The position numbers and the translations under genes are program-made. A DNA stretch of 64,000 bases, taken from contig JAWMAR010000011.1 in assembly GCA_036785375.1 (NCBI GenBank), positions 13,516,001 to 13,580,000 of the forward strand, in the 5' to 3' direction. Origin of the DNA: Leucoraja ocellata. Taxonomy: Eukaryota. Below the pieces are notes generated by a model. That model did not search any database. It had not been told where the DNA came from and saw nothing but the letters and a program-made list of their open reading frames with translations. Of the stretch, positions 17,306 through 43,117 are shown one piece after another; position 1 is the first letter of the stretch; every line of letters starts with the position of its first letter.

Positions 17306-17392
17306 ATGTGGGTTGGGTTGAAACGAACTTATGGATGCTCAGATATTTCAGTCAAAAGTATTATCAATAATGCCAAAAAGAAAAACCAAGAG
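17306..17392 (+). CDS. Uncharacterised putative coiled-coil protein, coding exon A (MWVGLKR...KKKNQE)
   Basis: Acceptor TTGCTTTGCAG|G at 17260, ATG at 17306, donor GAG|GTACAT in phase 0 matching the next exon. The frame is also open upstream of the ATG to the acceptor. Confidence 0.65.
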
Positions 17393-18389
17393 GTACATGC
17401 AACTGAATAGTGTTTGCAGCCTTGGTACAGTCTTTGATTTATTTAATAATTAAATAGTCTAAAAAAAGAATCATAGTGCTGGAGTAACTCAGCAGGTCAG
17501 GTAACATCCTTGGAGAACATGGATAGGTGATGTTTCAGGTCAGGACCCTTCTTCAGATTGATTGTGGTGGGGTGGGGTCAGGACAAAGCCTGACAAGTGA
17601 AGGGTGGTTACAGATGAGGAGGGGGTGGGGAGGTTTTGGTAGACTATTGGATAAAGGCCAAAGATGAAAAGACAAAAAGTGAACTGTGAAGCCAGAGGAA
17701 GGAGTACAGGTAGAAGAGGAGGGGGAAAGAGAGAAATGGATGCGAGTCCAGGTGGGGGACAGGGAAGAGATGGGGAAGTGGGGTTGTTTGTAGGTTATTT
17801 AGGTAAAATTGGAGAATCCACTGTTCATACCATTAGGTTGTAAGCTGCCCAAGCATAGGTTGTAAGCTACCCATGAAAATGTCTAGTCAATGTAACAATG
17901 ATATTTTACTTCCTTTTTTTGGTCCCTTTCACTACTTTTGTACCTTAGATATATTTCTGCATGAAGAATAAATTAGACTAACTAATGGTGGGCCCACCGA
18001 TTCTCTCCATATGATTGCAATATCAATTGATTAGTTTGCCAGTACATTGACATCTCTTGTTCCTTTTAGTATGAGTGCGAAGCTGTTGAAGCCTCGGTAG
18101 ATAGCATACAGCGGAAAGCAGCAGCTGTGAGGGAAAACTCCTCTCTGCTGGAGGTAAGTACTTAGTATTCAATGAAATATATTTGCAGCAAGTTCGTAGA
18201 TTCAATGCAGGAAATGCAGTGGCTAATGTTGCATTAATCAAGCCAACCCACACAGCAATGCAACATCCTCCAAGCTAGAGAATGTACCATCTTCCCTGGA
18301 AAACAGTGCAATAGTCCCTTTGTACTATTCCAGAACATCCAATGGCTAATTTTGATAGCCTTTAAAGTATCAATGGATGCCACATTGTT

Positions 18390-19180
18390 TTAAAAAATAT
18401 ATTTGTATTTATTAGAAGTACAGTAAATTACAGTAGTACAATCCAGATATATCTTATTACATTTATTGTACCCCTTCATTTTTGAAGCTTTAAGGAAAGA
18501 TATTGATAAAGAAAGTAGAGAAAGTGAGAGAAAGAAAGTTGTGTTCGTGTAAAAGAGTGATCAATGAGAAAAAAAAACAGAGACCCATTGGTTAGAGAAA
18601 AGAATTAAGAAATAGACCCTAGAAAAGAAAGGAGGAAAAAGGAAAAAAAACACAAAAAACCCCAAAGCTCTATTATTAAAACCGCGCAAATGGGATATAC
18701 CAACTTCATATTTTTCCTCCTCCTTTACCAGATCCTGACACCATTTCTTTTTTGAAGTACTGTTGTACCTTATTCTTGTAGTAAGTCGATAAATGCAGAC
18801 CACGTCTTTTGGAAGTGGTCTGATTTGCCTGCAAGGTCTCATATCTACCAGGTGTAATGTTTCAAACATATTTGAAATCCACATATTTAATGTTGGTATA
18901 GGAGCGTTCTTCCAGAATTTAAGTATAAGCTTTTTTCCCATTATTAGCCCATAATTAAATAGATTCTTTTGAAACACATTTAGTTCAGGGCTACCTTCCA
19001 TTGTTCCAAAGATAATCCATTCAGGTTTTGGTATCAGTTTTATTTTGAATAATTTTGTAAAATTCAGTCCAACATTTTTGAATTTTTATACAAAAAACAA
19101 ATGAGTGCGCTATGGTAGCTTCTTGAGATCGGCATTTATCACAAATAGGTGAAACGTTAGGAAAAAGTTTACTTATTTTT
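18390..19180 (-). mobile_element. L1-clade LINE ORF2 3' end
   Basis: CDKC...AHSFVFC cysteine motif and KKLILKFWK.AP.PT..MW, followed by a T-rich 3' UTR and tail. Confidence 0.75.
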
Positions 19181-19907
19181 CTCAGTCACTAACTGGTCGA
19201 GGATGCGTCTTTCCTCCGAGCTGCATCTTCACCTCCTCCTCGTGGCCTACCGTCTGGATTGGCGCGGGAAATGCTGATTACGCTCTGTGGGGATGTTCAT
19301 GTTAAATTCTATCGTGTGTTGTGTTATTTTTATTCGTATGGCTGTATGGTAACCCAAATCTCACTGTACTAATTGGTACATGTGACAATAAATATAAACT
19401 TGAACTTGAAACTTGAAATAGTTTGCACGTGTCAATAGAAGAGATTTACTTGACAGTTTCCAAAGCAAATCTCTTAAGTAGTCTTCCACTATAAATCTTG
19501 CACTCACGACGGAAATTATGTCTAATTGATTACTTGTGGGGAAGCTACATATAAACTTTTTATTTTGAAGATTGTTTGACTTTTGAATTAACTGGCTACC
19601 CCACTTCAATAACTTCTAAAGATGTTTGCATTTCTGTCACTGACTTTCTTACCTTGAGAAATTGCTTTAAATTTATGAGAGTTTGTATAAAGTTGGATTT
19701 TTGCAAATCAAGAATTCTGTAATCTGGGGAGCTCCTGTATAAGTGAATTATGTCAGGTATTTAATGCAGAATTCTTTCAAACATTGCCAAATAATTTGTC
19801 ATAACTCGAAGTTCATATAAATGTTAGTAGCAAGTGCATCATTGCTATCACTGCTTGAAATATCGGGGTGAAAGATCCATCACAATCTTATTTCTTCCCC
19901 ATGACAG

Positions 19908-20254
19908 TTAAAATTGCGACAACTCTGCAGACGTATCAAAGAGGACACCATGAAGAAACACAAAAAGATTAAAGTCGATCTGAGCAAGAGACTCAGAAAG
20001 CGGAGTCTTACTGATGAGATTGGCTCATCAAGCTATCACAACCCCAATGAGAGTTTATGCCAGACACTTGAATACGTGGTTGCCACTATGTCTGACCTCG
20101 AGGTGATGATGACAGACATTATAAACACCATTGAGGAGGACCCCAATACTGACAGAATGCCTGAGAAGGATCCCATGACATCCAGGAAAGATTCTGAAAC
20201 TCGAAACATGCCACACAAGCCCAAATCTTTATCATCTGTGTTGGAGGAAGTCAG
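19908..20254 (+). CDS. Uncharacterised protein, exon B (LKLRQLCRR...VLEEV)
   Basis: Acceptor TTTCTTCCCCATGACAG|, 347-bp open frame, donor AG|GTAACC; phase 0 to 2. Confidence 0.85.
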
Positions 20255-20436
20255 GTAACCACATAATATACAACCATATTTCTTCATTACTATCTTCCCA
20301 TCATAATCTTTAATCTCCTTGTTTATTAAGTATCTATTTCACTCTGCTTTAAAATTATTTTAAAAACTGTGTCGATTGCCCTCTGCACCCGCTCCACTCT
20401 TTTAAGACCCCAAAGAACCCGATATGTTTCAATCTG

Positions 20437-20743
20437 AGGGGCATGGTGACACAGTGGTTGAGTTGCTGCCTTACAGCGCCAGAAACCCGGGTTCGATCCT
20501 GACTACGGGTGCTGTCTGTACAGAGATTGTATGTTCTCCCTGTGACCATGTGGGTTTCCTCTAGTGCGTTGGTTTCCTCCCACATTCCAAAGACGTACAG
20601 GTTTGTAGGTTAATTGGCTATAGTAACAATTGTAAATTGTCCCTAGTGTGTAGGATAGTGCTAGTGTATGGGGATTGCTGGTCGGTGCAGACTCAATGGA
20701 CCGAAGAGACTGCTTCCATGCTGTATCTGTAAACTAAACTAAA
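20437..20743 (+). mobile_element. V-SINE
   Basis: A/B-box-like head (GGTTCGATCC), V-domain, CR1-like tail. Confidence 0.85.
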
Positions 20744-21854
20744 CATATTCAGTTCCACTCATCTAAATTCCAAAGGAAGCAACGCTTTCCTGTACAACCA
20801 ACCATTCCAGGTATTAGTCTAGTAAACCTCTCTCAACAGCTTCCGGTGATATCAGGAAGCGAATAGTGTAAATTGAGCTCCATGTAACCCAAGCATAATC
20901 CATCTGGTTTTGTATTCAGTTGCCTCAGCAATAAACAATAACATCTGTTAGTTTTCCTAATGATTTGAAATATCTGAATGCAAGTCCTTTGCGAATTATG
21001 TACCAAAACATCCAGATCCCTCTTCATTGCATTAATATGTTAAATTAGCATTGAGCAATTATACAGAACTAGTATGTTTGGGACAAATGGTCCATGCCAT
21101 TAATGTTTCACACAAGCCTTTTCCCCACTCTTGCTTACCTCAGCATTTGCTTGCAGTCCTTTCTCCCTGAAGTATTTGTCCAGTTATTCTTCACAGCAAT
21201 GCAAATCAACAAAATGATCTTATGTGTAAGTGAATGCCACTTTCTAATCGAGAATCTGGGTAAAAAAAGCAGATGCTTCTGAATTTAGTATTATTTATCA
21301 GTGACACTTTTGTATTCATGTCTCCAAGGTTCTCCCATAAGAAGAGATATTTCCCTGTCTCCACTCAAACCCTTTCCTGATTTTAAAACGTCTCTGCAGA
21401 TTTTTCCAGCTTATCCTCCTAATTATAACCTCACAATTCCAGTATTACCTGCATACAATGTTGTTTAACTGTTTGTTGCTCCATTATACCTTTTTTTATT
21501 ATAAGGCAGGGATCATTACTCTAGTGCTACCCAAGTGTGGTCTAACCTTGTGAAAGTTCTTTACAACTTTAACCTAATTTCTTTACTGTTTTGTTTCTTC
21601 ACTTAAGGGAACCAAGTGATCGATTTGAAACACTTGATCGCAGAACTGCTTGGGAATGCAGATATTGAGTACTCCTTTACATTTATGCGGAAATCCCCAG
21701 ATATGCAAAGCAGCTGCCAAATTGTAGAAATGGCATTAACCATTTATTATTATTAGGATCAATGACATGGGGTCTGCATATATAATATTAAGTGCTTTAG
21801 ATATTTTGAATGACACTAGATACATAAACATTGCTATCTTAACATTTGCAACTT

Positions 21855-22161
21855 TAGTTTAGTTTAGAGATAAATTGTGGAAACAGGCCCTTCAGCCCAC
21901 TGAGTCCACACTGACCAGCAATTCCCACACAATAATACTATCCTACACATACTAGGGACAATTTACAATTTTAACAAGCCAATTAACTACAAACCTGTAG
22001 GTCTCTGGAGTGTGGGAGGAAACCCGAATCCCGGAGAAAACCTACGCAGGTCATGGGGAGGATGTAAAAACTCCATACAGACAGTACCCGTAGTCAGGAT
22101 CGAACCTGGGTCTCTGCCGCTGTAAGGCAGCAAATCTACTGCAGCGAACACCGTGCTGCCC
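21855..22161 (-). mobile_element. V-SINE
   Basis: Reverse complement of the same family. Confidence 0.85.
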
Positions 22162-23653
22162 ACTTAACCTTAAACGTAAGCCAACTTAAACCCCGTCTTT
22201 CATAATATTCATAGAGTATCTCTCTTCCAAAGAAATATAATACTAACTGAAATGATCCAGTGTTTGATAACTGAAAAATGATCTTGCACAGCACTCCAGT
22301 GCAACTAGGAGAACCATAATAGTCCAATAATAATTTATATTTAAGAAGTATATTTAATGAATCACGCACGATTGCTTCATTGGAGCACAATGTACACAAA
22401 AGAAGGGAGCAAGAGGACATGCTGAGTGTCTGAAAATAAATACAACCACACTTTCGACAGAATTGAAGACATGAGTAAATCCATTGGTTCAATTCTATAC
22501 ATATTCCACAGCATTACCTTATAGCTGGTGAAAATTATTGCCCATTGACATACTCCCATTCAAGTTAAATGTTTATGCTGTTTCCAACGAAAGATGTCAG
22601 CAATGGCAACTTGGATCACTCTCAACTTTGGCTGTAGTTGTCCTCAAATCAAGCTCTGGGTTAGGTTTATTCATCTCTTCACCAGCAACCAGAGTTCTAT
22701 CTGTGCAATTGAGTGAAGCCCAGCTTTTCCAACAATGGCTGGAGTAAAGTGACTTTACACATAGATTCAGGCAATGGATTTCATCTTTGAACAACTTTAA
22801 AACCAGACTGAAAGGTGAAAGAATTGAGATGCACTGCATTGATTTCAATGGTGTGATATTCTGAGTTTGAATCTATATGTGTTGGGATTTGTGGCAACTC
22901 CATTGTACATCATTTGTATGTGATACCCTGATGAGGAACCTGTGCCAAATTCATTCTACCATATATTCTATTTGAATTAGAGATAGAAGATGACCCTTTG
23001 GTGCAAAAAATTAAATTATGTGTGCTATCTTATGCCATCTTTGCCCTCCTCTTTCCACTGACATAGTTTCTGATTTTGTGCTGTTAAATCAGATATATTA
23101 TATTCCCTGACAAAACAGCTTGGCCAAACTAACGGGACTTCGGTGGGCCAGGTAACTGCTCAGTAGCTAGCGCCTCTGCAGTGAAACTAGAGACATAGTT
23201 TGAAAATTCAAAGCAAATGCAGATGTTGAAATGAGCAAAATATAAAATTAGAACTAATCGCCAGATTACAATATAAAGAGAGAAATAGGGTTAATGTTTC
23301 AGGACCCTGAGTTTCTCACGTTTCCGTCTTCTACAGTAAATGGATGATACATGCGAGGAGGTGGGTTTCAAATATAAACCCTTCTAATAACTTTTTGTCT
23401 TTTCCTCTCTAAAGTTCCTTCAATGCCACTGGTATGCCAGATGTTCTATTCCCTCCGTCGCACATTTTTCACCTAAAAGCAGGAAACATTAATGTAGGGA
23501 TTAATAACTGCTACGTTTCCCAACTTCACCTCGCAGGCCAATTCAAGTCATCTCCCACTAACTTGTGCAATTTTTTAATATCTGATGTGATGTGATGCTA
23601 ATGTTCATAGAAGTGCCGCCTTCACTTTATTATTGCCCCGCTGGCAATATTAC

Positions 23654-24350
23654 TTTAGACTTTGGGATACAGCGTGGAAACAGGCACTTCGACCCACCGA
23701 GTCTGCGCCGACCAGCGATCCCCACACAGTAGCACTATCCTACAAAGGACGATTTTACAAATTTACCGAAACCAATTAACTTACAAACCTTTATGTCTTT
23801 GGAGTGTGGGAGGAAACCGGAGCACCCGGAAAAAATTCATGCGTTCACAGGGAGATTGTGCAAACTCCATAGTCAAGATTGAATCTGGGCCTCTGGCGCT
23901 GTAAGTCATCAACTCCACCACTGCTCCACTACACCACCCTATTACGTGGTCATTGATGGAGGGTTTTCGCTTTTGCTAAATCTGAGTAAGGGGAAAATCA
24001 CAAATAATATTGAAACAAAGTGTTATTTTTGCCTCTGTATATTTAGTTTTGGTTTAGTTTAGAGATAAGCGAGGAAACAGGCTTTTTGGCCCACCGAGTC
24101 CATGCCGATCAGTGATCCCCGCACATTAACCCTATCCTACACACACTAGGGGCAATTTACACTTATCAAGACAATTAATTTACCTACCTGTACGTCTTTG
24201 GAGTGTGGGAGGAAATCGAAGATCTCGGAGAAAACCCACGCAGTTACGAGGGGAACGTACTAACTCCATACAGACACGCCAGTAGTCAGGAACGAACCTG
24301 ATTGCCATTAATACTAAGGCAGTAACTCTACAACTGCGCCACCGTGCCAC
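23654..24350 (-). mobile_element. Two V-SINE copies (23654-23938, 24043-24350)
   Basis: Reverse complement of the same family. Confidence 0.8.
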
Positions 24351-24994
24351 TCAACATTTATTCGATAGAAATAAATTAAAAGCAACAGAAAGCTCACTCC
24401 AACTTAGTAAGGATATTTATAAATGCTCAAAAGACTGCAATTAGAAACCAGATAACTGACTGTTTCGTACTGTGCTTTAAAACCGTCTAATGCTGACAGA
24501 ACTTAACAAGAACAACTAAAGGAGTTTGTATGAAGGTTGGATACTTGCCAATTTTGTGCATGGAGATTCGTATGGTTTATGCAAAAAAGCTCTGGTCATA
24601 TACAGTCTTACTGTACTGTGAATACAAAAGTCCCTAATCCGTGCCTGGCGATCGCCATTATTACTAAACAAAAGTTGACTGTGAATCTAACTATATGCGG
24701 GATACTGAAGAATGAACCTCTCTGTCTTCAGAACATAGAACAGTACAGTACAGGAAAAAGCCATTCGGCCCACAATGTCTGTGCCAAATGTGTTGTCGTT
24801 AAATTAATCTCCTCTGCTTGAATGTGATCCATATCACTCTGTTTCCTAAAGATCCAAATGCTTCTCAAATACCACAATTGTGTCTACAACCACCACTGCT
24901 GTTAGCGCATTCATTCCATCACTCTTTGTACAATAACTTTTTCCACACATTTCCTTAAAATTCTGCCCTTCTCACCTTAAAGCTGTGCCCTAAA

Positions 24995-25933
24995 GTTTGT
25001 GGATGACACTAAGCTGGGGGGCAGTGTTAGCTGTGAGGAGGATGCTAGGAGACTGCAAGGTGACTTGGATAGGCTGGGTGAGTGGGCAAATGTTTGGCAG
25101 ATGCAGTATAATGTGGATAAATGTGAGGTTATCCATTTTGGTGGCAAAAACGGGAAAGCAGACTATTATCTAAATGGTGGCCGATTGGGAAAGGGGGAGA
25201 TGCAGCGAGACCTGGGTGTCATGGTACACCAGTCATTGAAGTAGGCATGCAGGTGCAGCAGGCAGTAAAGAAAGCGAATGGTATGTTAGCTTTCATTGCA
25301 AAAGGATTTGAGTATAGGAGCAGGGAGGTTCTACTGCAGTTGTACAGGGTCTTGGTGAGACCACACCTGGAGTATTGCGTACAGTTTTGGTCTCCAAATC
25401 TGAGGAAGGACATTATTGCCATAGAGGGAGTGCAGAGACGGTTCACCAGACTGATTCCTGGGATGTCAGGACTGTCTTATGAAGAAAGACTGGATAGACT
25501 TGGTTTATACTCTCTAGAATTTAGGAGATTGAGAGGGGATCTTATAGAAACTTACAAAATTCTTAAGGGGTTGGACAGGCTAGATGCAGGAAGATTGTTC
25601 CCGATGTTAGGGAAGTCCAGGACAAGGGGTCACAGCTTAAGGATAAGGGGGAAATCCTTTAAAACCGAGATGAGAAGAACTTTTTTCACACAGAGAGTGG
25701 TGAATCTCTGGAACTCTCTGCCACAGAGGGTAGTTGAGGCCAGTTCATTGGCTATATTTAAGAGGGAGTTAGATGTGGCCCTTGTGGCTAAGGGGATCAG
25801 GGGGTATGGAGAGAAGGCAGGTACGGGATACTGAGTTGGATGATCAGCTATGATCATATTGAATGGCGGTGCAGGCTCGAAGGGCAGAATGGCCTACTCC
25901 TGCACCTAATTTCTATGTTTCTATGTTTCTATG
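24995..25933 (+). mobile_element. Young CR1 LINE, 5'-truncated
   Basis: DDTKLGG, LVRPHLEYCVQFWSP, FFTQRVVNLWNSLP; (TTTCTATG)n tail; near-identical to 53938-55066. Confidence 0.93.
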
Positions 25934-28339
25934 TCCTCTAGTCTTTGAGATTTCCACATTTGAAAAAAGGTTCTGACTGTCTGCCCTATCTCTGCCTCTC
26001 ACAATTTCATATACTTCCATCAGGTCTCCACTCAGCCTCCAGAGAAAACAGTTCAAGTTCCTCAAACAACTTCTAATACCCTCTAATCTAGGCAAACTCT
26101 TCTGCACCCTCTCCAAAGCCTTCACATCCTGAGTAGAACGACTAGAACTGCTCAGAGTACTCCAAATATGGTCTAACCCAAGTCTAATAAAGCTGCATCA
26201 TGACCCCCTGACTAATATACTCAATGCCCCGATTGATGAAGACAAGCATACCTTACGTCTTCATTACCACTATCTACTTGTGTTGCCACTTTCATGGAGC
26301 TATGGATTTGGACACCATTTCTGGCTTCAAAGAAACTGGAATCAAACATATACTCCTACTGCTCTTAAATGGCATGTAATTCCAACAGCTTTGCTGTGCC
26401 AGAGAAGAAGAATATTGCTCAATGAATACATGTTATCCGTTAGCAGAAAGTTCTGCCTTCAACATAATCCTGACTACATAACAACACCAACTTAACAACA
26501 CCAAACATGAGCACTTAGCACAGAGGTTGGAGATACCAGAGGATCATTGCTCTATTGCTAACATTATGGTATTCAAGTGTAGCATTGGGTGGATGGAAAA
26601 TCCCAACTGGATTACATTGCCTTTCGTCCTATTTAGATCCAATTTTAAAGGTCATGTTCTAATTTGTTATCCTTCACCTCTCGTCCTGATTATTCAATAG
26701 TTTTCTTTCAAGATATGGCTCCAAGTACATCATTTCAACATTAAAATTCCCTCTGGTTTTGTGCCCCTCAAGTTGGTGCATACTCAATTTTTTAAGTTTA
26801 CAAAAAGTCCTGTTGTTTTGCCCATGATTTAATTACTGTTGTAACTAATAGTCATACGGCATGGAAACAGTCCCTTTGGCCGACTTTCCCACACAGACCA
26901 ACATGTCCTATCTACACCAGCGTGTGTTTGGCCCATATCCCTCTAAACCTCTAAATCAAGATCCTGCTACAATTTTTGACAACCATCTTCACTATCTACA
27001 ATAACACCCACTTTAGTGTCATCGGCAAACGTGCAAATCATGCCATGTACTTTCTCATTCAAATCATTGATATAGATGACAAATACCAATGGGCTCCAAA
27101 ACCAAACCCTGAGGCACACCACTAGTCACAGGCCTTCAGTCCGAAAAGCAATCTTCCACCATCACAATCTGCTTCCTTCCATGAAGTCCATTTTCTATCT
27201 ACTCAACTATCTTCCCTTGAATCCCATGGGATCTAAACTTCCAGAGCTACCTACCATGTGGAACCATATTGCTCAAATCCATATATATAATGCCTACAGC
27301 TCTGCCTTCACCCACCTCTTTGGTCACATCAATGAAAACTCAATCAGATTCTGATCAATATGATCAGAGCTTTTTTTACATAAACCATATAAATCTCCAT
27401 GCACAAAATTGGCAAGTCTCCAACTTTCATACAAACTCTTTTAGTTGTTCTTGTTCAGTTCTGTCAGCATTAGACGGTTTAAAAGAACGGTAGGAAACAG
27501 TCAGTTCTCTGGTTTCTAATTGCAATCTTTTGAGCATTTGTAAATATCCTTACTAAGTTGGCATGAGCTTTCTGTTACTTTTAATTTAGTTCTATCGAAT
27601 AAATATAATACAATGAAAAAATTAAAGATCCTCAGTGCAAAAACAAAAATTGAACTCAATTTGGCTGATGTGGATGAAGGTGGTGAATGGAGTTAAAAGT
27701 TTATTTTTAAAACCAAAAAAATCAAACATAGATATAGTTTCAACATTTTCTTGGGCTTTGGAACATGAGAGACTGCAGAAGCTGGAGTCTAGCAAAACAA
27801 AAGGAGAGATTCTGGAGGAACTCAGTGGGATGGGCGGCATCTGTTGACATTTTGGGTCGGGACTCTTCATCTTGACTGAAGGAATAGAAGGGAGATAGCT
27901 AGTGGAAGAATAGGGAGGAGGATGGACTCAAAGCCTCAGGTGCCTGAGGTCCAGGCTGAGTATTAGCATGGTTGACCTGGAGCCTAAGTCCCTAGGGTGC
28001 TCACCAACCCTTGCAAGGGGGCTCCCTCATGTCATCACCCGGCTGGCTGAACATGGTTCCAAACATTTCATTGCTGGTCGCCAATTCCAGTCTACTACAG
28101 AGGATCCTAAGACTTGGCAAGACATGGGCCCTGGGCACTTGAACCCGACACCCAGTGTGCCATGAGAACCCAAGCGTAGGCTGGATGAACACAACCCTAG
28201 GCCGGATGGAGCCTACTGACCATTGCGTACAACAGCTTAATATTATTCATGAAGTTTAGAAATGGGAAGGGTTAAGGAGAGAGAAGGGATTTTTCAGACG
28301 CTCCATATGCTGACTACCAAATTTCTGTGATTGTTTCAG

Positions 28340-28534
28340 GAAGACTCTGGTGGATTTTAACTCGGAATATCATGAAGATGTTGCCCTGACAGAAGAAGTG
28401 TCCAAGCAGACGGACAAAATCAAAGAGAAGATGAGCTGTTTATTGAACCAGTGGGAGGTCAGTCAAGAGCAAGAGTCCAGTTTGCATAAAATGCTTGGAG
28501 ACTTCAGAAATGAAACAAACGACATTTCTATCAG
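28340..28534 (+). CDS. Uncharacterised protein, exon C (KTLVDFNSEY...NDISI)
   Basis: Acceptor TTGTTTCAG|, 195 bp open, donor AG|GTAACT; phase 2 to 2. Confidence 0.85.
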
Positions 28535-28858
28535 GTAACTCAATGAGAAGAATGAACTTGTGATCATTTGATTTGATGGGATGGGAAGGTGATGTGGGAG
28601 AAGGAGATCATGTTATGATCCTGGTGTCTCCCTGCTGCCATTCTTGCCTGACAAAGGCAGGAAGGCCCAGAATACTGGGGCCCCATTGGGATGGGGACAC
28701 TGTTTTAACCAAGGTCCCAGCTAAGGAGCACGTGGCCTCCAACCCATCGTGGCCATTTTTACAATTGAAGTTTAAGTCAGCAACATGTAAAATGTTGAGG
28801 CCTGAAGCCCTCACGCTGCTTACTCCCACTCTCCTGGGTTTGACTCCACTGGGTCCTA

Positions 28859-31282
28859 GTGCCAGTCGACCCAGCCTGGTCTACCTCAGTGGCAGTTCGA
28901 CTGAGTCTCCTCCCCCCACCACCTCTAACTGTAAGTCTCCTCCCCCCACCCCCTCTAACTGTGTGGCCCCTGCTCTTCCCCACCCACACCACAGCCCTCT
29001 CACCCCCCCACCCCCTGACCACCCACCACCCCCCCACCACACATCGCCTCGTCCCCACCTGCCTTCCTCCGGCCCCAACCCCCATCCCTGTCGAGTGTTC
29101 ACCATCCCCCCCCGACCTCCCCCTCTCCAACACCGAACGGTCCGTCCTCAACAGAGGTCTTACCTTTGTCCCCCTCCGTCCCCACCTCAATGAATTCCGC
29201 GCCCACCACGACTTGGAGCGCTTCTACCGTCGCCTCCGCCTCACAGCTTTCTTCCATGGGAAGGAGTCCTCGCCCCCCACTGATGACCCCTTTTCCCGAC
29301 TCCAACGCACCCCCTCCTCGTGGAACCCCCCTCATGGCCAATTTCCGGCTTTAGAACTTTTTATCAATAACTGCCGTCGCGACATCAACCGCCTCAACTT
29401 CTCCACTCCCCTGTCTCACTCCAATCTCTCACCACATGAACGTTCTGCCATCGACTCACTCCGCAACAACCCAGATTTGGTTATCAAACCCGCTGACAAG
29501 GGAGGTGCCGTGGTAGTCTGGCGCGCCGATCTCTACAAAGCTGAGGCCACGCGCCAACTATCGGACACCTCCTCCTACTTACCCCTGGACCATGACCCCA
29601 CTGACGAGCACCAGGCCACCATCTCCAGCACCATCACCAACTTCATCCACTCCAATGCCCTACCCGACCGAGCCTCCAACCTCATCGTTCCCCAGCCCCG
29701 CACAGCCCGATTTTACCTTCTCCCTAAAATCCACAAACCTGATTGTCCCGGAAGACCCATTGTCTCCGCCTGTTCGTGCCCCACCGAACTCATTTCCAAA
29801 TACCTTGACTCCATCCTATCACCCTTGGTTAAATCCCTCCCTACCTATGTTCAAGACACCTCAGACACTCTCCGTCGTCTCCGCGCATTCAATTCTCTAG
29901 GCCCTCACCCCCTCATCTTCACCATGGACGTCCAATCACTATACACCTCCATCCCCCACCACGATGGTCTCACAGCCCTCCGGTTCTTCCTCGACCAGAG
30001 AAGCAACCCATACCCAGCCACTGACACTCTCCTCCGCCTAGCGGAGCTGGTCCTTACCCTCAATAACTTCACGTTCGACTCCTCCCACTTCCTCCAAATA
30101 CAAGGCGTAGCTATGGGCACACGCATGGGCCCCAGCTATGCCTGCCTATTTGTAGGTTACGTCGAGCAATCCTTGTTCAATACATACCAGGGCCCCATCC
30201 CCGACCTCTACCTCCGCTACATCGACGACTGCTTTGGTGCCACCTCCTGCACCCGCACACAACTGACTGACTTCATCCACTTCACCACTAACTTCCATCC
30301 GGCACTCAAATACACCTGGACCATTTCCGACACTTCCCTACCATTCCTTGACCTCACTATCTCCATTGCAGGTGATAGACTTCTAACTGACATACACTAT
30401 AAACCGACTGACTCCCATGGCTATCTGGACTACACTTCTTCCCACCCTGCTTCCTGTAAGGACTCCATCCCCTACTCCCAATTCCTCCGACTACGCCGCA
30501 TCTGCTCCATGGATGAGGCGTTCCACACCAGGACATCTGAAATGTCCTCACTATTCAGGGAACGGGGGTTCCCCTCCTCCACCATAAATGAGGCTCGCTC
30601 CAGGGTCCCTTCCATACCCCGCAACACTGCTCTCTCTCCCCATCCCCGCACTCGCAACAAGGGCCGAGTCCCCCTAGTCCTCACCTTTCACCCCACCAGC
30701 CGTCACATACAAAAAGTAATCCTCCGTCAGTTTCGCCACCTCCAACGTGACCCCACTACTCGCCACATCTTCCCATCTCCCCCCATATCTGCCTTCCGCA
30801 AAGACCGCTCCCTCCATAACTCCCTTGTCAATTCTTCCCTTCCCTCTCGGTCCACCCCCTCCCCGGGCACTTTCCCTTGCAACCGCAAGAGATGCAACAC
30901 TTGTCCCTTTACCTCCCCCCTCGACTCCGTTCAAGGACCCAAGCAATCGTTCCAGGTGCGACAGAGGTTTACCTGCATCTCTTCCAACCTCATCTATTGC
31001 GTCCGCTGCTCTAGATGTCAGCAGATCTATATCGGTGAGACCAAGCGGAGGTTGGGCGATCGCTTCGCCGAACACCTCCGCTCGGTCCGCAATAACCAAG
31101 CTGACCTCCCGGTGGCTCAGCACTTCAACTCCCCCTCCCACTCCGCCTCCGACCTCTCTGTCCTGGGTCTCCTCCATGGCCACAGCGAGCAGCACCGGAA
31201 ATTGGAGGAACAGCACCTCATATTCCGTTTGGGGAGTCTGCACCCCGGGGGCATGAACATCGAATTCTCCCAATTTTGTTAG
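28859..31282 (+). CDS. PLE polyprotein: reverse transcriptase + Cys linker + GIY-YIG endonuclease
   Basis: KPADKG, FYLLPKIHK, GRPIVS, TMDVQSLYTSI, QGVAMGT, YLRYIDD, PFLD; CNRKRCNTC linker; NLIYC...IYIGETKRRL...E..LI...GMN. The called start is GTG and the N-terminus is uncertain. Confidence 0.9.
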   Translation: MPVDPAWSTSVAVRLSLLPPPPLTVSLLPPPPLTVWPLLFPTHTTALSPPHPLTTHHPPTTHRLVPTCLPPAPTPIPVECSPSPPDLPLSNTERSVLNRGLTFVPLRPHLNEFRAHHDLERFYRRLRLTAFFHGKESSPPTDDPFSRLQRTPSSWNPPHGQFPALELFINNCRRDINRLNFSTPLSHSNLSPHERSAIDSLRNNPDLVIKPADKGGAVVVWRADLYKAEATRQLSDTSSYLPLDHDPTDEHQATISSTITNFIHSNALPDRASNLIVPQPRTARFYLLPKIHKPDCPGRPIVSACSCPTELISKYLDSILSPLVKSLPTYVQDTSDTLRRLRAFNSLGPHPLIFTMDVQSLYTSIPHHDGLTALRFFLDQRSNPYPATDTLLRLAELVLTLNNFTFDSSHFLQIQGVAMGTRMGPSYACLFVGYVEQSLFNTYQGPIPDLYLRYIDDCFGATSCTRTQLTDFIHFTTNFHPALKYTWTISDTSLPFLDLTISIAGDRLLTDIHYKPTDSHGYLDYTSSHPASCKDSIPYSQFLRLRRICSMDEAFHTRTSEMSSLFRERGFPSSTINEARSRVPSIPRNTALSPHPRTRNKGRVPLVLTFHPTSRHIQKVILRQFRHLQRDPTTRHIFPSPPISAFRKDRSLHNSLVNSSLPSRSTPSPGTFPCNRKRCNTCPFTSPLDSVQGPKQSFQVRQRFTCISSNLIYCVRCSRCQQIYIGETKRRLGDRFAEHLRSVRNNQADLPVAQHFNSPSHSASDLSVLGLLHGHSEQHRKLEEQHLIFRLGSLHPGGMNIEFSQFC

Positions 31283-31398: not shown

Positions 31399-31426
31399 CT
31401 GAAGAAGGGTTTCGGCCCGAAACGTT
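31399..31426 (+). ncRNA. Putative minimal hammerhead ribozyme in PLE pseudo-LTR
   Basis: CUGAAGA-A-GGGU(UUCG)GCCC-GAAA-CGUU: both conserved core boxes, 4-bp stem II, palindromic ACGU stem III. Confidence 0.6.
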
Positions 31427-32079
31427 GCCTATTTCCTTCGCTCCATAGATGCTGCTGCACCCGCTGAGTTTCTCCAGCTTTTTTGTGTAACCTTCGATTC
31501 TCCAGCATCTGCAGTTCCCTCTTAAACATGTAAAATGAAGTGGGTTATGAAATGTGTTCCCACCCTAAGTCTCCCCAAGTCCCTGACTTGCAATTCCCTT
31601 AATTGCAAGGATGTAACACTGAGACAGAACTGTGTGATATATTTAGTGAATGGTGCAACAAGGTGTAATTAGCTATCTTAAGAGTGAGTTGATTGTTATA
31701 ATTTGAAAGTGAGTCATCTAAATGATGGTCCTTGCACTGATCAATCTTCCATTTTTGTTTTATTCTGTCTGGAGTCAGTAGGCCTGCAGTTATTGAACAT
31801 TTTTTTGAACAGTCATTGGAATGAATCTCCATATGGGGGTTAACAAGAAATTGATACAATTTTTATAACTGAGCCAAGTGAAGTATTTTCTGCCAATAGG
31901 TGACAAATCCAAAAGCCGAAATCCGCCTGAATTACCTGGCCTGACTGGCTGGAGTATCTCAGATGATATATTAAACAGTGCAGCTCTGAATGCAGTGTAC
32001 TGATCTTGAAATGAATGGGATGAAAATGAACCAGTTTAACTGTAAGAACTAGTGCTCATTGTTGTGATAATCACCTAAA

Positions 32080-32630
32080 ATGTAGAAAGCATTTTATCAG
32101 GATGCATCACAGCATGGTTTGGGAACAGTGGGAACAGCTCCATCCAAGACAGCAAGAAATTGCAGAGAATTGTGGACGTAGCCCAGACCATCACACAAAC
32201 CAACCTCCCTTCCTTTGACTCCACTTACACCTCACGCTGCCTCGGCTGGGCCACCAGCATAATCAAGGACGAATCACATCCCGGCCACTCCCTCTTCTCC
32301 CCTCTCCCATCGGGCGAAAAGATATAAAGGTGTGAAAACGCACATCTCCAGATTCGGGGACAGTTTCTTCCCAGTTGTTATCAGGCAACTGAACCATCCT
32401 ACCAACAATTAGATAGCAGTCCTGAAGTACTATTCACCTTATTGGAGACCCTCGGGCTATCTTTGATCGGACTGTATTAGACTTTATCTTGACTTAAACA
32501 TTATTCACGTTATTCCCTTTATCAGGTATCTATACGCAGTGGATGGCTCGATTGTAATCATGTATTGTCTTTCTGCCAACTGATTAGTATGCAACAACAG
32601 CTTTTCACTCTACACATGACAATAAACTAC
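32080..32630 (+). mobile_element. Rex1/Babar-like LINE 3' fragment
   Basis: ESILSGCITAWFGN, HPGHSLFSPLPSG and SFFPVVIRQLN motifs; tail with AATAAA. Confidence 0.8.
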
Positions 32631-34824: not shown

Positions 34825-34983
34825 CATGAATGAATCTTCTGATGCTATATCCAAAATTGCATCGGACACCAATGATCTCACGGGAATTCAATCACTTTTA
34901 GAAGCTATTTTGGTTGAACTACACAGAGCCAATGACCTGAGTCAGAAAAGTAGTTACTTACTGACCAAGCCACAGAGTGGAAA
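34825..34983 (+). CDS. Uncharacterised protein, exon D (MNESSDAISK...KPQSG)
   Basis: Acceptor TTTTCTTTCAG|, 159 bp open, donor AA|GTGAGT just before an in-frame TGA; phase 2 to 2. Confidence 0.82.
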
Positions 34984-35384
34984 GTGAGTATGAACGTAAG
35001 GGAACAAAGCAGAGCAATTGAAATGTACTATGCCTTGATTTACTGCAAAATATTAATAATGTTACCCATCTTATATCTAGAGGAATTTTGATTGGTATCA
35101 ATACACAATGTGTTTGATTCATGGCAATCTCTAAATGGAGAAACATCAGCGTATAGGTACAAAGTTAATTGAAAGTGGTGACACAGGAAACAGAATGGTG
35201 AAGATATTATTCAAACTTGCCTTCATCATTCAGGGTATTGAGAACAGGAGTTGGGAAGCCATGTTGCAACTGTACACATCAACAGTGAACACCACATTTG
35301 CGGTACTGTTTTTATTGCCTAGTTATAGGAAGGATGTCATTAAGATGGAAATGGTACAGAAAAAAGCCTGTGAATGTTTCTGGG

Positions 35385-36530
35385 ACAGGAGGAACCCTAC
35401 AGTGCCGGATGACTACCCTTCTTCACACCCTGCCTGTTGCAAAAACTCTATCCCAAATCCCAATTCCATCTCCAGTGCAACTGCTCTCAAGATGAGGTGC
35501 TCCATACCAGGACATCTGAGATGCCCTAATTCTTCAGGGAATGAGGGGTTCCCTCTTCTATCATGGATGATGAGGGCCTCATATGTGTTGCTGTATCCTA
35601 TAGTTCTGCTGCTGCCCTCCCTCCCCCAGTTGCAACAGGGACAGAGTCCCCCTAGTCCTCACCTTTCACCCCATCAGCCGTCGCATATAACACCACCTCC
35701 AACATTTTCAATGGGATCCCACCACTAGTCTCATTTTCCCATCTCCACCCCTTTCCACAGAGATCGTTCCCTCCGCAACTCCCTGGTTCACTCATCCCTT
35801 CCCTCCCAAAGAAACCCCTCCCCAAGAACTTTCTCCTGCAACCACAGGAGATGCAACACCTGTCCCTATCCCTCCTCCCTCGACTCCATCCAGCATCCTC
35901 CAACATTCTTTTCAGGTGAGAGAGAGGTTCACTTGCACCGCCTCCAACCGCATCTCCTGTATCCATTATTCTCGGTATGGGCTCCTATTTATCGGCGAGA
36001 CCAAGCGCAGACTGGGCGATCATTTCGCTGAACACTTATGCTCAGTCTGCCTTGGCCTGCACGATCTCCCGGTTGCCAAACATTTGGACTCCCTTTCCCA
36101 TTCCCATGCTGACCTTTCTGTCCTGGGCCACCTCCACTGTCAGAGTTAGACCACATGCAAATTGGTGGAACAGCACCTCATATTTCATTTGGGCAGCTTA
36201 CAATGCAGCGGTATGAATGATGATTTTTTTCTAATTTAATTCCCTGCATTTCTCATTCCCCCACCTGAGTTCCACTGTTTGCATCCCTGTGTCCTTTTGT
36301 TATCATCTTTTCCCCAGCTAACAATGAGCCATTATTGGCTTCACCCTTCCCTGGTCATCTGTTGCCAGCCCTCATTTGTTTTGGCCTTTTCCTACCTCCC
36401 ATTCCACCCCCCCCCCAAAGTTATTTTCAGTCTAAAGAAGGGTTCTGACCTGAAACATCACCTATTCCTTTTCTTCAGAGATGCTGCCCGACCCGCTGAG
36501 TTGCTCCAGTACTTTGTGCCTATCTTTCTT
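35385..36530 (+). mobile_element. Degenerate PLE 3' half (GIY-YIG + pLTR)
   Basis: ORF 35916..36149 has FIGETKRRLGDHFAEHL; co-linear with 30420-31480. Confidence 0.85.
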
Positions 36531-37211
36531 ACAGACCGTTTACAGAGATGTTTCATAAATCGCCACAAAGATGTATTCTGTTGGGAAAGAATGGCTCTAA
36601 CAGAAGTATGTACAGTCCAGGCTAACTAAAGAATTTTAGGGAAGACATCATACTGAAATAAAAAGCACACAAAGTTGCAGGATTGGGAAACTTTTAGAAA
36701 CATCAAATTGAGAGGAAAATAATATGAAATAGGCGAGGAACGAGTTTCAGAGTAAACTAAATAATGTAACAATATTGTATATAATAGGAGCTTCTTCAGG
36801 TGTATAAAATAAGAGAATAGCTCAAGTTGGTTCCTTGGGGGATGAGATGAGAATTAATAACGGAAGATAGTGAAATGAAAGCAGTTCTAAATAATTAGTA
36901 TGTATTGGTCATTACAGTACAAAACACCAAAGCATTGCAATAATAATTAATGAATGGGATACAAGAAAGGAGAATCTTAAAGCAATCTCTATCACTAAGG
37001 AAAATGTACTAATAAAACTATCGGGGTTAAAGATTTATTTGACGTCCACTGAACTTGTTGGCTTACATTTTAACAGGAGTGGCTGCAGTCAAAATGGATG
37101 CATTCATTGTTATCAACCAAAATTCCCTGGTTCATTGGAAAAGTTCCACAGAATTGGAAAGGTAGTACCACACTTAAAGAAAGGAGTGGGACAGAAAGCA
37201 GGAAACTAATA

Positions 37212-37925
37212 GCCCTGTCCTATTCCAAGAGCTCTCCCGAGTTTAAAAAAAAAATCAAACTCGTGGTAAGCACGGAAAATGAACGTAGCGGGTATGTCGG
37301 AGCTCGGGGACGTCTCTTAGTACTAACGGCAGGAAGACTCGCTAACGGCAGGTAAGCATGGGGAGACTCGTGAAGATTTTTCAACATGATGAAAAATGTC
37401 CACGAGAGCCCCAAGTTCCGACGAGTGGCCATTACCGTAAATCTCAGGGCAAACTCAGGAGAACTCTTGGAATGAACTCGTACTGTGGGACAGGGGTTTA
37501 AGGGCCAGTTAGTCTTATCTCTGACATGGCTTAAGGTCAAAAGGTCACTATATCCTTCCTCAGATATAGTGGCCAAAATTGTTCACAATATTCGAAATAC
37601 GCCCTGTCCCACTGTACGAGGTAATTCAAGAGTTTTTCCGAGTTCTCCCTTGATTCGAGCTTGTGTAATGTACGTAGCGGGTACGTAGGGGCTCGTACGA
37701 GTAAAAAGTAAAAAACAATTTCATCACGGGTATTTTTTTACTCGTGGACATTTTGCACAGTGTTGAAAAAACGTCACGAGTTTACTGGATTTCCTGAGTA
37801 CCGACCATTACGAGCCGCTATGTGACATCCACGAGCTCCTACATACCCACTGCGTACATTACACAAGCTCGAATCAGGGGAGAACGGGAGAACTCTTGAA
37901 TTACCTCATACAGTGGGACAGGCCC
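37212..37925. mobile_element. Two MITE copies (37212-37496, 37601-37925), same family as 6076-6378
   Basis: TIRs CCTGTCCCACTGTACGAG...CAGTGGGACAGG and shared internal sequence. Confidence 0.8.
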
Positions 37926-38173
37926 TTTACCAGTGCCTTATAGAGCCTCAGCATTACATCTCTCTTGGATGGGCATGGACAAGTTGGTCCGAAGGGCCTG
38001 TTTCCCTTGGGTGACTCTGAGACCCTTCCATTGTTAATTGTTTTTACATCATTATTGCCTTTCTATCATTTTTATTCTGTAATTCTATCATGTTTTTCTG
38101 AGCTTTTGGACCGAGGGCACATCTTCCAGCGAGCCCTTGTTTACATTGGTTCCATTCTCTCCTGTCTTGCTAG

Positions 38174-38309
38174 TGTCCTTGAATGCTGCTTCAGTGCAGA
38201 GGCGGTGCAGCAGGTTCTGAAAAAGTCAACATCCTCGATAGCAGAGGAAATTCACCGCATGGAGGACAGTACCTATAAGGAAGTGAAGAGCTGGAGGCAA
38301 AAAGTTGAG
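38174..38309 (+). CDS. Uncharacterised protein, exon E (VLECCFSAE...RQKVE)
   Basis: Long pyrimidine tract TTCCATTCTCTCCTGTCTTGCTAG|, 136 bp, donor GAG|GTAGGA; phase 2 to 0. Confidence 0.82.
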
Positions 38310-39943
38310 GTAGGAATAGCAGCGGTTCCTGGAGAGAGGCCATTCTGCCCTTTGAGCCTTTTCCACCATTGTTTTAGTTTTACAGACACAGCATGGAAAC
38401 AGGCCCCTTGGCCCACCAGGCCCCTTGGCACCCCAGGCTGCCTGTCCCGCCGAGTTACTCCAGCATTTTGAGTATCTTTGGTTAAACCAGCATCTGCAAT
38501 TCCTTCCTATATATTCATCCAACTGCCTTTGGTTCCTGTCTTTTATATCCTTACCAGACAAACTCTATCAATTCCAATCTGAAAGACTCGGAGTCCCAGC
38601 ACTGACTTCTGATTAAGGTGCTTTCTAATTTCCCTCCTGAAGAGCTCAATTATAATTTTAAGATAATTTCTCCCTGTTCAAAATTGCCTTGCTAGAATAA
38701 ATTATTATTTTGAGTCCAACTTGATCAAATGCCTCCAGCATTTTATTCCACGATCAATTAATCCAGTAGAAAGATGGCCATGTTTACGTACAATCGCTTT
38801 CTCTGTAGTCCTGCATCGTTCTGGTGAATCTTTCCCATTACCCTCCACCAAAGGCAAGCATAGCCTACCTGAGATATGATGCCTTGGATCAAACCAATTG
38901 TCCAGGTTGGTCTGGCCATGGCTCTTAATACCGAAGCGTTTCTTTCTTATTTATTAAAGACAAAATAGTCTATAAATTTATGAACATGGAAACTTGCTTA
39001 AGGCTGATGTATGGCCAAAGTGCAAATCAAATGTAATGAATTAAATCAGCCAGAAAGTATTACCTAAGTTTAGTCATGAGCATTATTTAAATCATTTTCT
39101 TGTATCTTTACAATTGACAAATCAAACCAATTCAAGTATAATAGATAGAGTGAAGGAAAAAGGTACAGAGTGTAGAATATAGTTCTCAGCATTGCAGCAT
39201 AACAATTCCAGAGACCAAGTCTTGTCCACAATATGGCAGAAGGGAATTAAGCTGTACTCTAGGACAGTTTAGAAGCCTGATAAGGGAGGGGAAGAAACTG
39301 TTCCTGAGTCTGACGACACATGTTTTCAAGCTTCTGTATATTCTGCCAATGCGAGAAGGGAGAAGAAGGAACAACTTGTGTTGGAAAGGTCCTTGATTAT
39401 GCTGGCTGCCTTCCTGAGGCAGATGGAGTCAATGATGGGGTGTCTAGTCCGTGTGATGGACTGGACTACATTTACAACTCTCTGCGATTTCATGTGGTTT
39501 ATAGAATATGTAGAAAATGATGAGCGGGTCCCAGTGGATAATGGGACGTTGTTCCTTTTGGTGAGGAGTTGATGACCACAGGTCACATGATTAAATGAAA
39601 CAGAGGAGAATGAAGAACAACATGAGGAAAGGTCTATGTCTTGGAAGGAACTGCAGATGCTGGTTTAAACCGAAGATAGACACAAAATGCTGGAGTAACT
39701 CAGCGGGACAGGCAGCATTTCTGCAGAGAAGGAATGGGTGACCATTCTTCAGACTGTCAACGAGAGAGGGAGATACATAGATAAAGAAGTGTAAGGTGTG
39801 AAAATGAGACAATAGAGATCAAGGATATTAGAATAGATCATTGCTGCACCCGCTGAGTTTCTCCAGCTTTTCTGTGTAACCTTAGAATAGATCATTGTTA
39901 GCTGGGAGAAGATAAAAACAAAGCAAACAAGAGATAAAATGTA

Positions 39944-40469
39944 GGTTACACAGAAAAGCTGGAGAAACTCAGCGGGTGCAGCAGCATCTATGGAGCGAAG
40001 GAAATAGGCAACGTTTCGGGCCGAAACCCTTCTTCAGACTGATCAGGGGTGGGGGTGGGTGGGGACAAGAAAGGGAAAAGGAGGAGTAGCCGAAGGCTGG
40101 AGGGTGGGAGGAGACAGCAGGGGAGGCTGAGGAAGGGGAGGAGACAGCAAGGACTAACAGAATTGGGAGAAGTCGATGTTCATGCCCCGGGGTGCAGACT
40201 CCCCAAACGGAATATGAGGTGCTGTTCCTCCAATTTCCGGTGCTGCTCGCTGTGGCCATGGAGGAGACCCAGGACAGAGAGGTCAGAGGCGGAGTGGGAG
40301 GGGGAGTTGAAGTGCTGAGCCACCGGGAGGTCAGCTAGGTTATTGCGGACCGAGCGGAGGTGTTCGGCGAAACGATCGAAACGATGTTTCTCCTCACCAA
40401 AAGGAACAACGTCCCATTATCCACTGGGACCGCTCATCATTTTCTACATATTCTATAAACCACATGAAA
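39944..40469 (-). mobile_element. Truncated PLE 3' end plus templated inverted local DNA, 13-bp TSD
   Basis: GAGATAAAATGTA at 39931-39943 and 40470-40482; 39944-40378 matches the reverse complement of the intact PLE 3' end. Confidence 0.88.
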
Positions 40470-40775
40470 GAGATAAAATGTAATCGGAGACAGTCAGACT
40501 GATTGGAGAACTGGGCATGGAGAGAGAGGAAAAGCAAGGGTTACTTGAAAGAACGATCTGTGCAGTGTGTGGAATGCAGTGCTCCCAGTTGTGGAGGCAT
40601 GTTCCACAGTGGTCTTTAAGAGGTACAAGGATAGATATATGGAGAAGAAAAGCTTGTAAGGCTGTGGAGAAGAGGTTGTGGACAGTTGCTCTTGGAGAGG
40701 GCTGGCAGGGACGTGAGGGGCCAAATAGCCGCTTTCTCTGCAATAACCATTCTCTGATTCTGTGATCACCCATAG

Positions 40776-40900
40776 GACTTGCGTCACCAGCTGCACCAGG
40801 AACATTTTCGTTGCTGCAGCATGGAATATGAAACTCGTCTCATCAGAGATGAAATCATGCAGTTACAGACGCATCTGTTCTGTGAACAGTCATCTGAAAG
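40776..40900 (+). CDS. Uncharacterised protein, exon F (DLRHQLHQEHF...EQSSE)
   Basis: Acceptor ...CACCCATAG|, 125 bp open, donor AAG|GTATGC; phase 0 to 2. Confidence 0.8.
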
Positions 40901-42933
40901 GTATGCACCATGAATGCACTATCTGCCTACAGGTTCTAGGTTACTTCATACTTAGTGTTAACAAAAAATAGATTTTGTTTTCTCACACCCTTCTTTGATG
41001 AATACAATCTCAACACAATACCTGTTCTTCATATTTCTGAACCAACTCAAGGGGCATTGGTCTGCAGGAAAGTTTCCACAACCAAGTCTTGTCTCCAAAT
41101 ACTCCCTTTTCGAGACCCTTTGTTAAGACCCTGTCCTGATGCAGATCCTTGACGCAAAGCACTGAGCATTCCTCCGTCTCCACGGGTGCTGGCTGATCCG
41201 CTGAATTCCTCCAGAAGTTGTTTTTTTTGCTCCAGATACCAAGATCTGCAGGTTCCTGTGTCCCATTTCACCTCATCTAGTTCAAAGGTTGCAAATTCGC
41301 CCATCTCTGCACAAGTCCGCCCCCTTGTGGATGGATAAAGCAGGATTTGAAAATGTCGGCTTAGGCACATAAGTATAAATAATTAGCTCCTAAATGAAAA
41401 GCATTTGTGCATTTCATTCATTGATTTTATAATATTAAACCACTCACTGACTCACCATCTTACGAGGAGAATATGGGAAAGACAGAATTAATAGGTAGAG
41501 TTTTATTCAGTCACTATTTACCCTGTCATATTCTTCTGTAGACTTAGATTTTCAAGAGGCTTGATGTATAATTAGTTCTTCTTCTCAATTTAGCCACTCC
41601 AGGGCAGGTTGCCAACTTGAGACCAAAATATTAGGGCATTTAATCAGAACACAGATGTGTATTCTCCTGCTAAATTCTGCACATTTTGGAAACCGCTTAC
41701 GCATTGTAGTATCCATGAGTTTCTTTGTGTTGCTATAAGCACACGTGACTTGGTGGAGAGGGAGCTGTACAGAACATCCTTTATTTACAGCAGTAACCCT
41801 CAACTAAACAGCAGTGCCAGGAACAACAATGTACCAAGATCATACCATGTGGTGCATTCATTACATTTGAGCCTGAAGAAGGGTCGGCAAACTGGAGGAA
41901 CAGCACCACATTTTACACTTGGGTAGTTTACAACCCAACAGTATGAACATTGAATTTTCCAATTTTTAGGTAACCTCCAACAACCCCCCCCCCCCCCCCC
42001 CCACTAGCCGCCTCAACCAACCCCTTTATCCCCCACATTCCTGAGCCCCACCTGAACTCGCACCTATTTCTCCCCTCACAATCTCCCTCCTCCTACATTT
42101 CTTCCTCTGGCTACACATTTGCAACACTTCAATCCACTTGTGTCACACCTTCTGCTCTAACCACTGGCCTTTGTTTCAACCAGCTTTTTTTTTAATGTTT
42201 CAAGGGTCCTACAGTATATTTGTCCCAAATGCAGCTGTACAGTAAAATTCGTTTTGCATAGATTACACATGTTGATATATTGCACATGACGCATTTTTGG
42301 CACCATTATTCAAAGTACAAAGTCCGGTTAGCCCGCACCCTCGCTCGATGTACTGGAGCAGTTCCCGTGAACCAAAGTCCCACTCCTCGTCTGGCCATCT
42401 TTGTGTCCCCGGAGCACCTCCTGCAGCAGACCTTGCAGGCGCCGGAAGCATTACCCCGTTTCACCCTCCCACCGGCACCCGTTGCTCTTGTCCAATGTCT
42501 CCGGCTCCCTCCTGGTTCCACCGTCCGACGTGCCTTTGGGTATTCTCCCATCAACCCCCCCCCCCCCCCACTCTCCTGCGTCCCCCTTTCCCTGCCAAGT
42601 TTTATCCAGACTCTTCTCTCTCCCAGCTATCTTTCCCCCAACTCCATCTTACGATCAGTTTGAAGAAGGATCCTGACCTGAAAGGTCACATCTCCATGTT
42701 CTCCACCTATCCATGCTGTCTGACCCGCTGAGTTACTCCAGCGATTTGCGTCCTTTTTCTCGGGTATCAATATAGCGCTGTAAATGAGCTTTCTCAATGC
42801 TGAACACCTAGATATTTCTTAGAAATAAAAACTGGGCCAATGTTTTCTGTTGTTTTATTTATAACTACTGAGCCGCCATTAATCTTAAACCTCTGCTCTC
42901 TCATCCCGCTTTCCCATCCGTTACTCAACCAAG

Positions 42934-43075
42934 TTTTAAAAAGTCCAACACCGAGGACATCTTCCGTAAAATTTGTGAAATATGTGATCGCGTCCAAGAA
43001 CTCAGCCAGGGGACTAGTCATCCTTTGCAAGATAAAAAAAGCAGCTTCACCGTGTCCTCAGTGCAGAGGAGCTGA
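42934..43075 (+). CDS. Uncharacterised protein, terminal exon G (FKKSNTEDIFRKICE...VQRS*)
   Basis: Pyrimidine tract then CCAAG| acceptor, phase-2 entry matches exon F, TGA at 43073-43075, AATAAA shortly downstream. Confidence 0.7.
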
Positions 43076-43111: not shown

Positions 43112-43117
43112 AATAAA
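43112..43117 (+). terminator. Candidate polyadenylation signal AATAAA (second at 43247-43252)
   Basis: Begins 37 bp after the predicted stop codon. Confidence 0.5.

Follow-up and report, generated by a model that had tools for sequence, protein, structure and literature searches.

A nine-exon TSKS-family gene beside PTDSS2 in the skate Leucoraja ocellata, a probable ancient paralogue of mammalian TSKS without the PP1-docking motif

The 64,000-nucleotide stretch of Leucoraja ocellata DNA analysed here (GenBank assembly GCA_036785375.1, contig JAWMAR010000011.1, positions 13,516,001 to 13,580,000; hereafter the window, whose first letter is position 1) carries, next to PTDSS2, a nine-exon gene for a predicted 484-residue protein of the testis-specific serine kinase substrate (TSKS) family, Pfam PF15358. 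Judged from trees, motifs and gene order, the gene is a paralogue, not an orthologue, of mammalian TSKS, and the duplication appears to precede the split between sharks and bony fishes. The best explanation overall, to which we assign a probability of about 0.7, is a TSKS paralogue that was likely born in the two rounds of whole-genome duplication (2R) and likely serves as a self-assembling coiled-coil scaffold of male germ cells.

An initial annotation, made from the letters of the window alone, had described the gene as seven exons coding for 396 residues. All seven segments are found where it placed them: the six introns between them are GT-AG with phases 0,2,2,2,0,2, the segments join into a frame of 1,191 nucleotides (nt) whose single stop lies at its end, and an AATAAA follows at 43112. 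The donors of the six first and internal exons score 5.0-9.0, where 95% of all 3,390 GT sites score no more than 5.8, and the acceptor of the last exon at 42934 is weak (-0.1). The gene is real, while its exon number and protein length had to be revised. The Leucoraja erinacea protein P0002 maps by tblastn to nine exons of the window, spread over 26.6 kb, with all introns GT-AG and a 484-residue product that shows no difference from P0025 and two from P0002. The nine-exon map and the identity to P0025 rule out the seven-exon model as the main form. Two exons (16455-16588 and 18070-18153) had been missed, and the second exon starts at 17260, so that the ATG at 17306 is the internal Met61, downstream of a strong acceptor. 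Skipping of the overlooked exon 3 leaves the frame intact and may give a minor isoform. Exon 6 (159 nt), which is lacking in three of the seven shark and ray models, suggests a conserved in-frame cassette exon.

A search with exon 4, which considered 93 candidates, retrieved seven proteins. All seven come from cartilaginous fishes and have PF15358; four of them are named "testis-specific serine kinase substrate-like". Every one of the seven full-length homologues passes the curated Pfam TSKS cut-off of 27 bits (P0002 with 56.2 bits, E 3.5e-15), which a single exon alone (P0001) does not reach. A ten-row alignment with tetrapod TSKS runs from end to end at 18-21% identity and keeps KTIWQS, LKR and the helical core, with T7, I8, W9, Q10, E13, L65 and R67 invariant in all ten rows. 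A profile search of 1.84 billion representatives gave eight matches, three of the gene's own type (catshark, chimaera and coelacanth, E <1e-60) and five of the TSKS type (amphibian, sawfish and lungfish, E 1e-9 to 1e-3); no teleost, gar or tetrapod copy of the gene's type was among them, the search being one of predicted proteins, not genomes. Matches 2 and 3 in the ESM Atlas are TSKS clusters, and the PDB holds no sequence relative at E up to 0.1. The protein had been left unrecognised, with the proviso that a full-length hit to a named protein would remove its novelty; such hits exist, and together with PF15358 they rule out an orphan or unknown protein. The suggestion of a lineage-restricted or mammal-lost gene survives in part: among predicted proteins no counterpart was found beyond cartilaginous fishes and the coelacanth, but mammals keep the paralogue TSKS.

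The gene is already annotated in RefSeq and is not an orphan. The same gene appears as TSKS-like in XP_055505670.1 (Leucoraja erinacea), XP_032894455.1 (Amblyraja radiata), XP_051885666.1 (Pristis pectinata) and XP_038663394.1 (Scyliorhinus canicula), and as an uncharacterised protein in XP_007902993.1 (Callorhinchus milii). The skate protein is 99.6% identical to that of Leucoraja erinacea and 65-91% identical to those of sharks, rays and chimaera. These models come from automatic annotation in which true TSKS is not separated from the gene's type, and some begin at the internal Met61. The coelacanth protein XP_014344857.1 (P0011) clusters with the skate gene (30% identity, profile E 3.7e-63) and likewise lacks K.VSF; unlike the skate protein, it carries the N-terminal motif block twice in tandem (residues 1-180) and is without the basic stretch. 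Its database name, "dynactin subunit 1-like", looks wrong because the protein carries PF15358.

A PF15358 search of the skate's own genome leads to another site, on contig C1 at 21.562-21.567 Mb, where five exons match the sawfish protein P0014. Intron phase is equal at all four introns compared between the window gene and the C1 gene, and a 195-nt exon is present in both. The sawfish carries both types (P0022 and P0014). In a careful tree of 12 rows, which is unrooted, type B (skate, electric ray, catshark, chimaera and coelacanth) is separated from type A (sawfish, lungfish and tetrapods) with support of 100/100; with the lungfish removed (11 rows) the split has 100/99, and a quick tree agrees. 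The window gene falls outside the tetrapod TSKS group, and a clade of chondrichthyans only is rejected by the approximately unbiased (AU) test (p-AU 0.0003 with 12 rows and 0.0007 with 11). The trees were computed without P0002, P0003, P0005, P0007, P0010, P0016, P0023, the isoforms, most of the 118 tetrapod proteins and the skate's partial C1 gene. A profile built from proteins of both types retrieved P0011 alone, with its own members crowded out of the result, and carries no weight for the distribution of the gene.

The two types differ in a short motif near the N-terminus. K.VSF is present in 121 of 121 A-type proteins (P0012-P0014 and 118 from the best 120 of 346 matches, two fragments without an N-terminus being uncounted) and in none of 13 B-type proteins, a set that includes four models without the first exon and several isoforms or near-copies. 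The general RVxF pattern occurs once in this set, in the coelacanth protein (residue 2). In mouse TSKS the motif reads KAVSF at residues 51-55, the RVxF position stated in PMC9073834, which describes binding of TSKS to PPP1CC2 through RVxF. Constraint differs as well. Over five matching exons, skate and sawfish are identical at 282 of 304 residues (93%) in type B and at 154 of 264 (58%) in type A, and the window gene has thus been evolving much more slowly than the TSKS copy between these two fishes. The window gene has KTIWQS, LKR, a long helical core and the Pfam match in common with mammalian TSKS, and differs from it in its separate clade, in the lack of K.VSF or RVxF, in some 90 fewer aligned columns after LKR, and in adjoining PTDSS2 and TRPM5 rather than CPT1.

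The C1 gene shows irregularities of its own. In its exon 4 (C1:21565388-21565723) a 36-nt unit is repeated 9.4 times in tandem. Two of the repeats have only 35 nt, so that translation runs into a stop ahead of the likely donor; the break may be genuine or a fault of the assembly. The last exon found for the A-type gene (C1:21562024-21562171) stops near the end of the sawfish model P0014, and further downstream no exon was found that would code for the C-terminal helices of tetrapod TSKS. Batoid TSKS may be truncated.

Gene order bears on how the two skate genes arose. That the window gene is simply TSKS itself in sharks and skates, an orthologue, with the C1 gene as a stray duplicate or one specific to sharks, is highly improbable. 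RefSeq does call both types TSKS-like, the window gene does keep the C-terminal helices of tetrapod TSKS where the sawfish A model ends early, and the A rows of the unrooted tree are long-branched; but the AU test rejects placing all chondrichthyan rows on one side, K.VSF is common to sawfish A and tetrapod TSKS and not to the window gene, and caecilian TSKS matches sawfish A with 100 bits but the window gene with 57. Moreover, it is the C1 gene that lies beside CPT1, about 100 kb from its start, as Tsks flanks Cpt1c in anole and coelacanth according to PMC4589379, whereas the window gene is 8 Mb from the other CPT1, on the contig of the window (C11). C11 holds TRPM5, PTDSS2, the window gene, one CPT1 and one AP2A; C1 holds the other CPT1, the other AP2A and TSKS. 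In humans, TRPM5 and PTDSS2 lie at 11p15 and TSKS and CPT1C at 19q13. PMC4589379 also describes elasmobranchs as having Cpt1a and Cpt1c only, and the Cpt1a and Cpt1c regions as 2R-derived. These duplicated neighbourhoods make a 2R origin of the window gene probable. A local or segmental duplication followed by translocation is the unlikely alternative: it would accommodate the different immediate neighbours (TRPM5-PTDSS2 here; on C1, the TNPO3-like and Ras-like genes that come after CPT1 and, on the other side of TSKS, DUSP, MOB and BRSK), the 8 Mb that separate the window gene from CPT1 and AP2A of C11, and the fact that the paralogue identities of several neighbours are not fixed. Against it stand the single CPT1, AP2A and TSKS-family gene on each of the two contigs and a date before the gnathostome split, which fits 2R. 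Retroposition is excluded by the shared introns. The DUSP-MOB-BRSK block (C1:21.578-21.638 Mb) has a BRSK-MOB counterpart on contig C40 (9.73-9.83 Mb), with MOB exons 57-76% identical, a duplicated block that adds to the case for duplicated neighbourhoods; within the stretches fetched from C40 no DUSP was found, and the 200 kb sampled around its BRSK and MOB contain no TSKS remnant.

The gene is expressed. P0025, identical over 484 residues, was found on two Logan contigs of at most 1,794 nt each, which for a gene of 26.6 kb identifies them as spliced transcripts. Contigs and reads of four runs were also placed on positions 11300-31200, where repeats swamped the result and only contig pieces were informative. 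Pieces ending at exon borders were obtained from run X1, flagged as probably DNA (17258-17390 and 19906-20250), from X10 (19906-20255) and from X2 (28339-28534); another X10 piece (28336-28559) extends 25 nt into the intron. No RNA record is listed for exon 4. Contig depth in X10, a poor measure of expression, is 3.6-4.2 for the gene vs 142 for PTDSS2.

What the protein does is best approached through the mouse. According to PMC10242716, mouse TSKS is required for two kinds of spermatid nuage and for the removal of cytoplasm, and on its own forms droplets that TSSK1/2 disperses and PPP1CC2 re-condenses. The helical body of the B-type protein would, by analogy, self-assemble in male germ cells. 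Direct docking of PP1 would not be possible without RVxF, and the assembly would then be constitutive or controlled by partners, possibly via the RVxF-bearing paralogue. The odds are about even that the window protein works like mouse TSKS in this way, as a helical body in membraneless, nuage-like assemblies of the spermatid cytoplasm. An AlphaFold model from a 5-sequence alignment is all helix at low confidence (predicted local distance difference test, pLDDT, 42; predicted template modelling score, pTM, 0.21) and is consistent with the helical protein that had been proposed. As a more tentative scenario, which we consider doubtful at present, two TSKS genes of early jawed vertebrates might have split the work: one kept the PP1 switch and evolved fast, and the window gene lost the switch and kept its coiled coil and its conservation. 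The window gene may even be the main nuage scaffold in skates, because their TSKS copy seems to lack the C-terminal helices and is frameshifted in the assembly; there would then be a phosphatase-independent scaffold for spermiation older than TSSK1/2, the mammalian kinases that gave the family its name.

The main rival to a germ-cell scaffold, less probable but not negligible, is a general centrosomal or nuclear coiled-coil protein that left the nuage role and is directed to the nucleus by its basic stretch. This stretch is conserved among chondrichthyans, low-depth contigs come from several runs, and CEP128 is the fourth ESM Atlas match (0.90), a lead only. The constraint on the gene is also far stronger than that on TSKS, and constraint of this strength is unusual in a testis-only gene. 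On the other side, the basic stretch, which had been read as resembling a nuclear localisation signal, forms part of a long predicted helix, is missing in the coelacanth copy and does not bear out that reading. The low X10 depth beside PTDSS2, subject to the caveat given above, and the spermatid specificity of the only characterised member of the family (PMC10242716) likewise speak for the germ-cell scaffold.

Several observations count against a 2R-born TSKS paralogue acting in male germ cells. The testis role is drawn from a homology of about 20% identity, the structure model, with a pLDDT of 42, is poor, and the top ESM Atlas match is a cluster of plant coiled-coil proteins, recognition being under the threshold. 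In the tree, which is unrooted, the A rows of sawfish and lungfish stand on long branches and carry a warning of long-branch joining; motif and synteny nevertheless agree with this tree. The 5' exons of the skate C1 gene, which would carry any RVxF motif, were not found; a 200-N gap lies just upstream. Among the neighbours, neither AP2A gene could be identified as alpha-1 or alpha-2 and neither CPT1 gene as a or c (no match), mouse BRSK2 is the best match of both BRSK genes (118 and 99 bits), and no evidence joins C11 and C40 into a single chromosome. With regard to transcripts, junction reads had been proposed as one check on the gene; none of its GT-AG junctions is among the 15 listed of 1,943 joints, a table crowded by repeats, though the contig pieces do meet the exon borders. 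In raw RNA-seq run X11, from another species and read to about 6%, depth in the exon-5 bin is zero.

The initial annotation had also placed the gene head-to-head with PTDSS2 and had proposed a shared promoter. The orientation holds, with PTDSS2 on the minus strand (ATG 11912) and its downstream exons matching Pfam PSS and PDB 9n0x (phosphatidylserine synthase 2). By the usual definition, bidirectional promoter pairs have starts within about 1 kb and one CpG island in common. Here 4,543 bp separate the two ATGs, or 2,201 bp if the alternative exon 14113-14271 is taken as the start; a long interspersed nuclear element (LINE) lies in the gap, and the CpG island is at the PTDSS2 end only (observed/expected CpG of 0.82, vs 0.23-0.39 at the candidate starts of the gene), which leaves the shared promoter unsupported. 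The intervening fragment is assigned to LINE by its reverse-transcriptase motifs. The features of the window are collected in Table 1.

Table 1. Coordinates of the TSKS-family gene and its surroundings in the window
Feature	Position	Strand	Basis and remarks
Coding exon 1, 134 nt	16455..16588	+	ATG 16455; KTIWQS motif common to all TSKS proteins; tblastn with P0002 residues 1-45 at 100%; GT donor; absent from the earlier model
Coding exon 2, 133 nt	17260..17392	+	LKR motif; acceptor score 12.8; contig piece 17258-17390 in run X1
Coding exon 3, 84 nt, phase 0/0	18070..18153	+	Splice scores 9.5/11.6; matched by 7/7 homologues; absent from the earlier model
Coding exon 4, 347 nt	19908..20254	+	Basic stretch and helices; contig pieces in X1, X2 and X10
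Coding exon 5, 195 nt, phase 2/2	28340..28534	+	Length and phases equal to those of the paralogue's exon on contig C1
Coding exon 6, 159 nt, in-frame cassette	34825..34983	+	Missing in 3/7 homologous models
Coding exon 7, 136 nt	38174..38309	+	Segment check, tblastn
Coding exon 8, 125 nt	40776..40900	+	Most confident helix of the structure model
Coding exon 9, through TGA stop	42934..43075	+	Segment check, tblastn, spliced product
AATAAA, candidate polyadenylation signal	43112..43117	+	Sequence only
Possible alternative first coding exon	14113..14271	+	Amblyraja radiata model P0023 only; joins exon 1 at TIWQS
PTDSS2 first coding exon, divergent neighbour, in CpG island	11697..11912	-	ATG 11912; identity from downstream exons
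LINE reverse-transcriptase fragment	12500..13870, borders approximate	-	Long reverse-transcriptase-like frames; high multi-copy contig depth

Further observations concern the surroundings. Just upstream of the PTDSS2 start lies a 29-bp minisatellite of 7.4 copies (12131-12345), most units of which contain CACGTG, an E-box sequence. TRPM5 is arranged tail to tail with PTDSS2 (C11:13.436-13.458 Mb). Between CPT1 and TSKS on C1 (21.515-21.541 Mb) there is a transportin-3-like gene, one exon of which carries Pfam PF24138; it may be a TNPO3 paralogue that was retained. Contig C507 contains a second copy of the window gene with equal exons and spacing, which we interpret as belonging to the other haplotype; the C11 and C40 loci recur in nearly identical form on C507, C399 and C806, which suggests that both haplotypes are partly present in the assembly.

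We found no paper on a distinct, ancient TSKS paralogue without RVxF in a literature search that covered publications outside subscription. The significance of the gene is real and specialist. For annotation, it means that two different genes stand under the name "TSKS-like" and that a coelacanth copy is labelled dynactin-like, both of which call for correction. TSSK1/2 has been placed in the mammalian ancestor (PMC7401350); the TSKS family, on the present evidence already there when sharks and bony fishes parted, is much older. Although regarded as a single-copy gene, and one that mouse sperm release depends on, TSKS has an ancient second copy without the PP1-docking motif. Such a copy would be a natural variant with which the parts of TSKS may be separated, those needed for nuage formation from those needed for regulation only.

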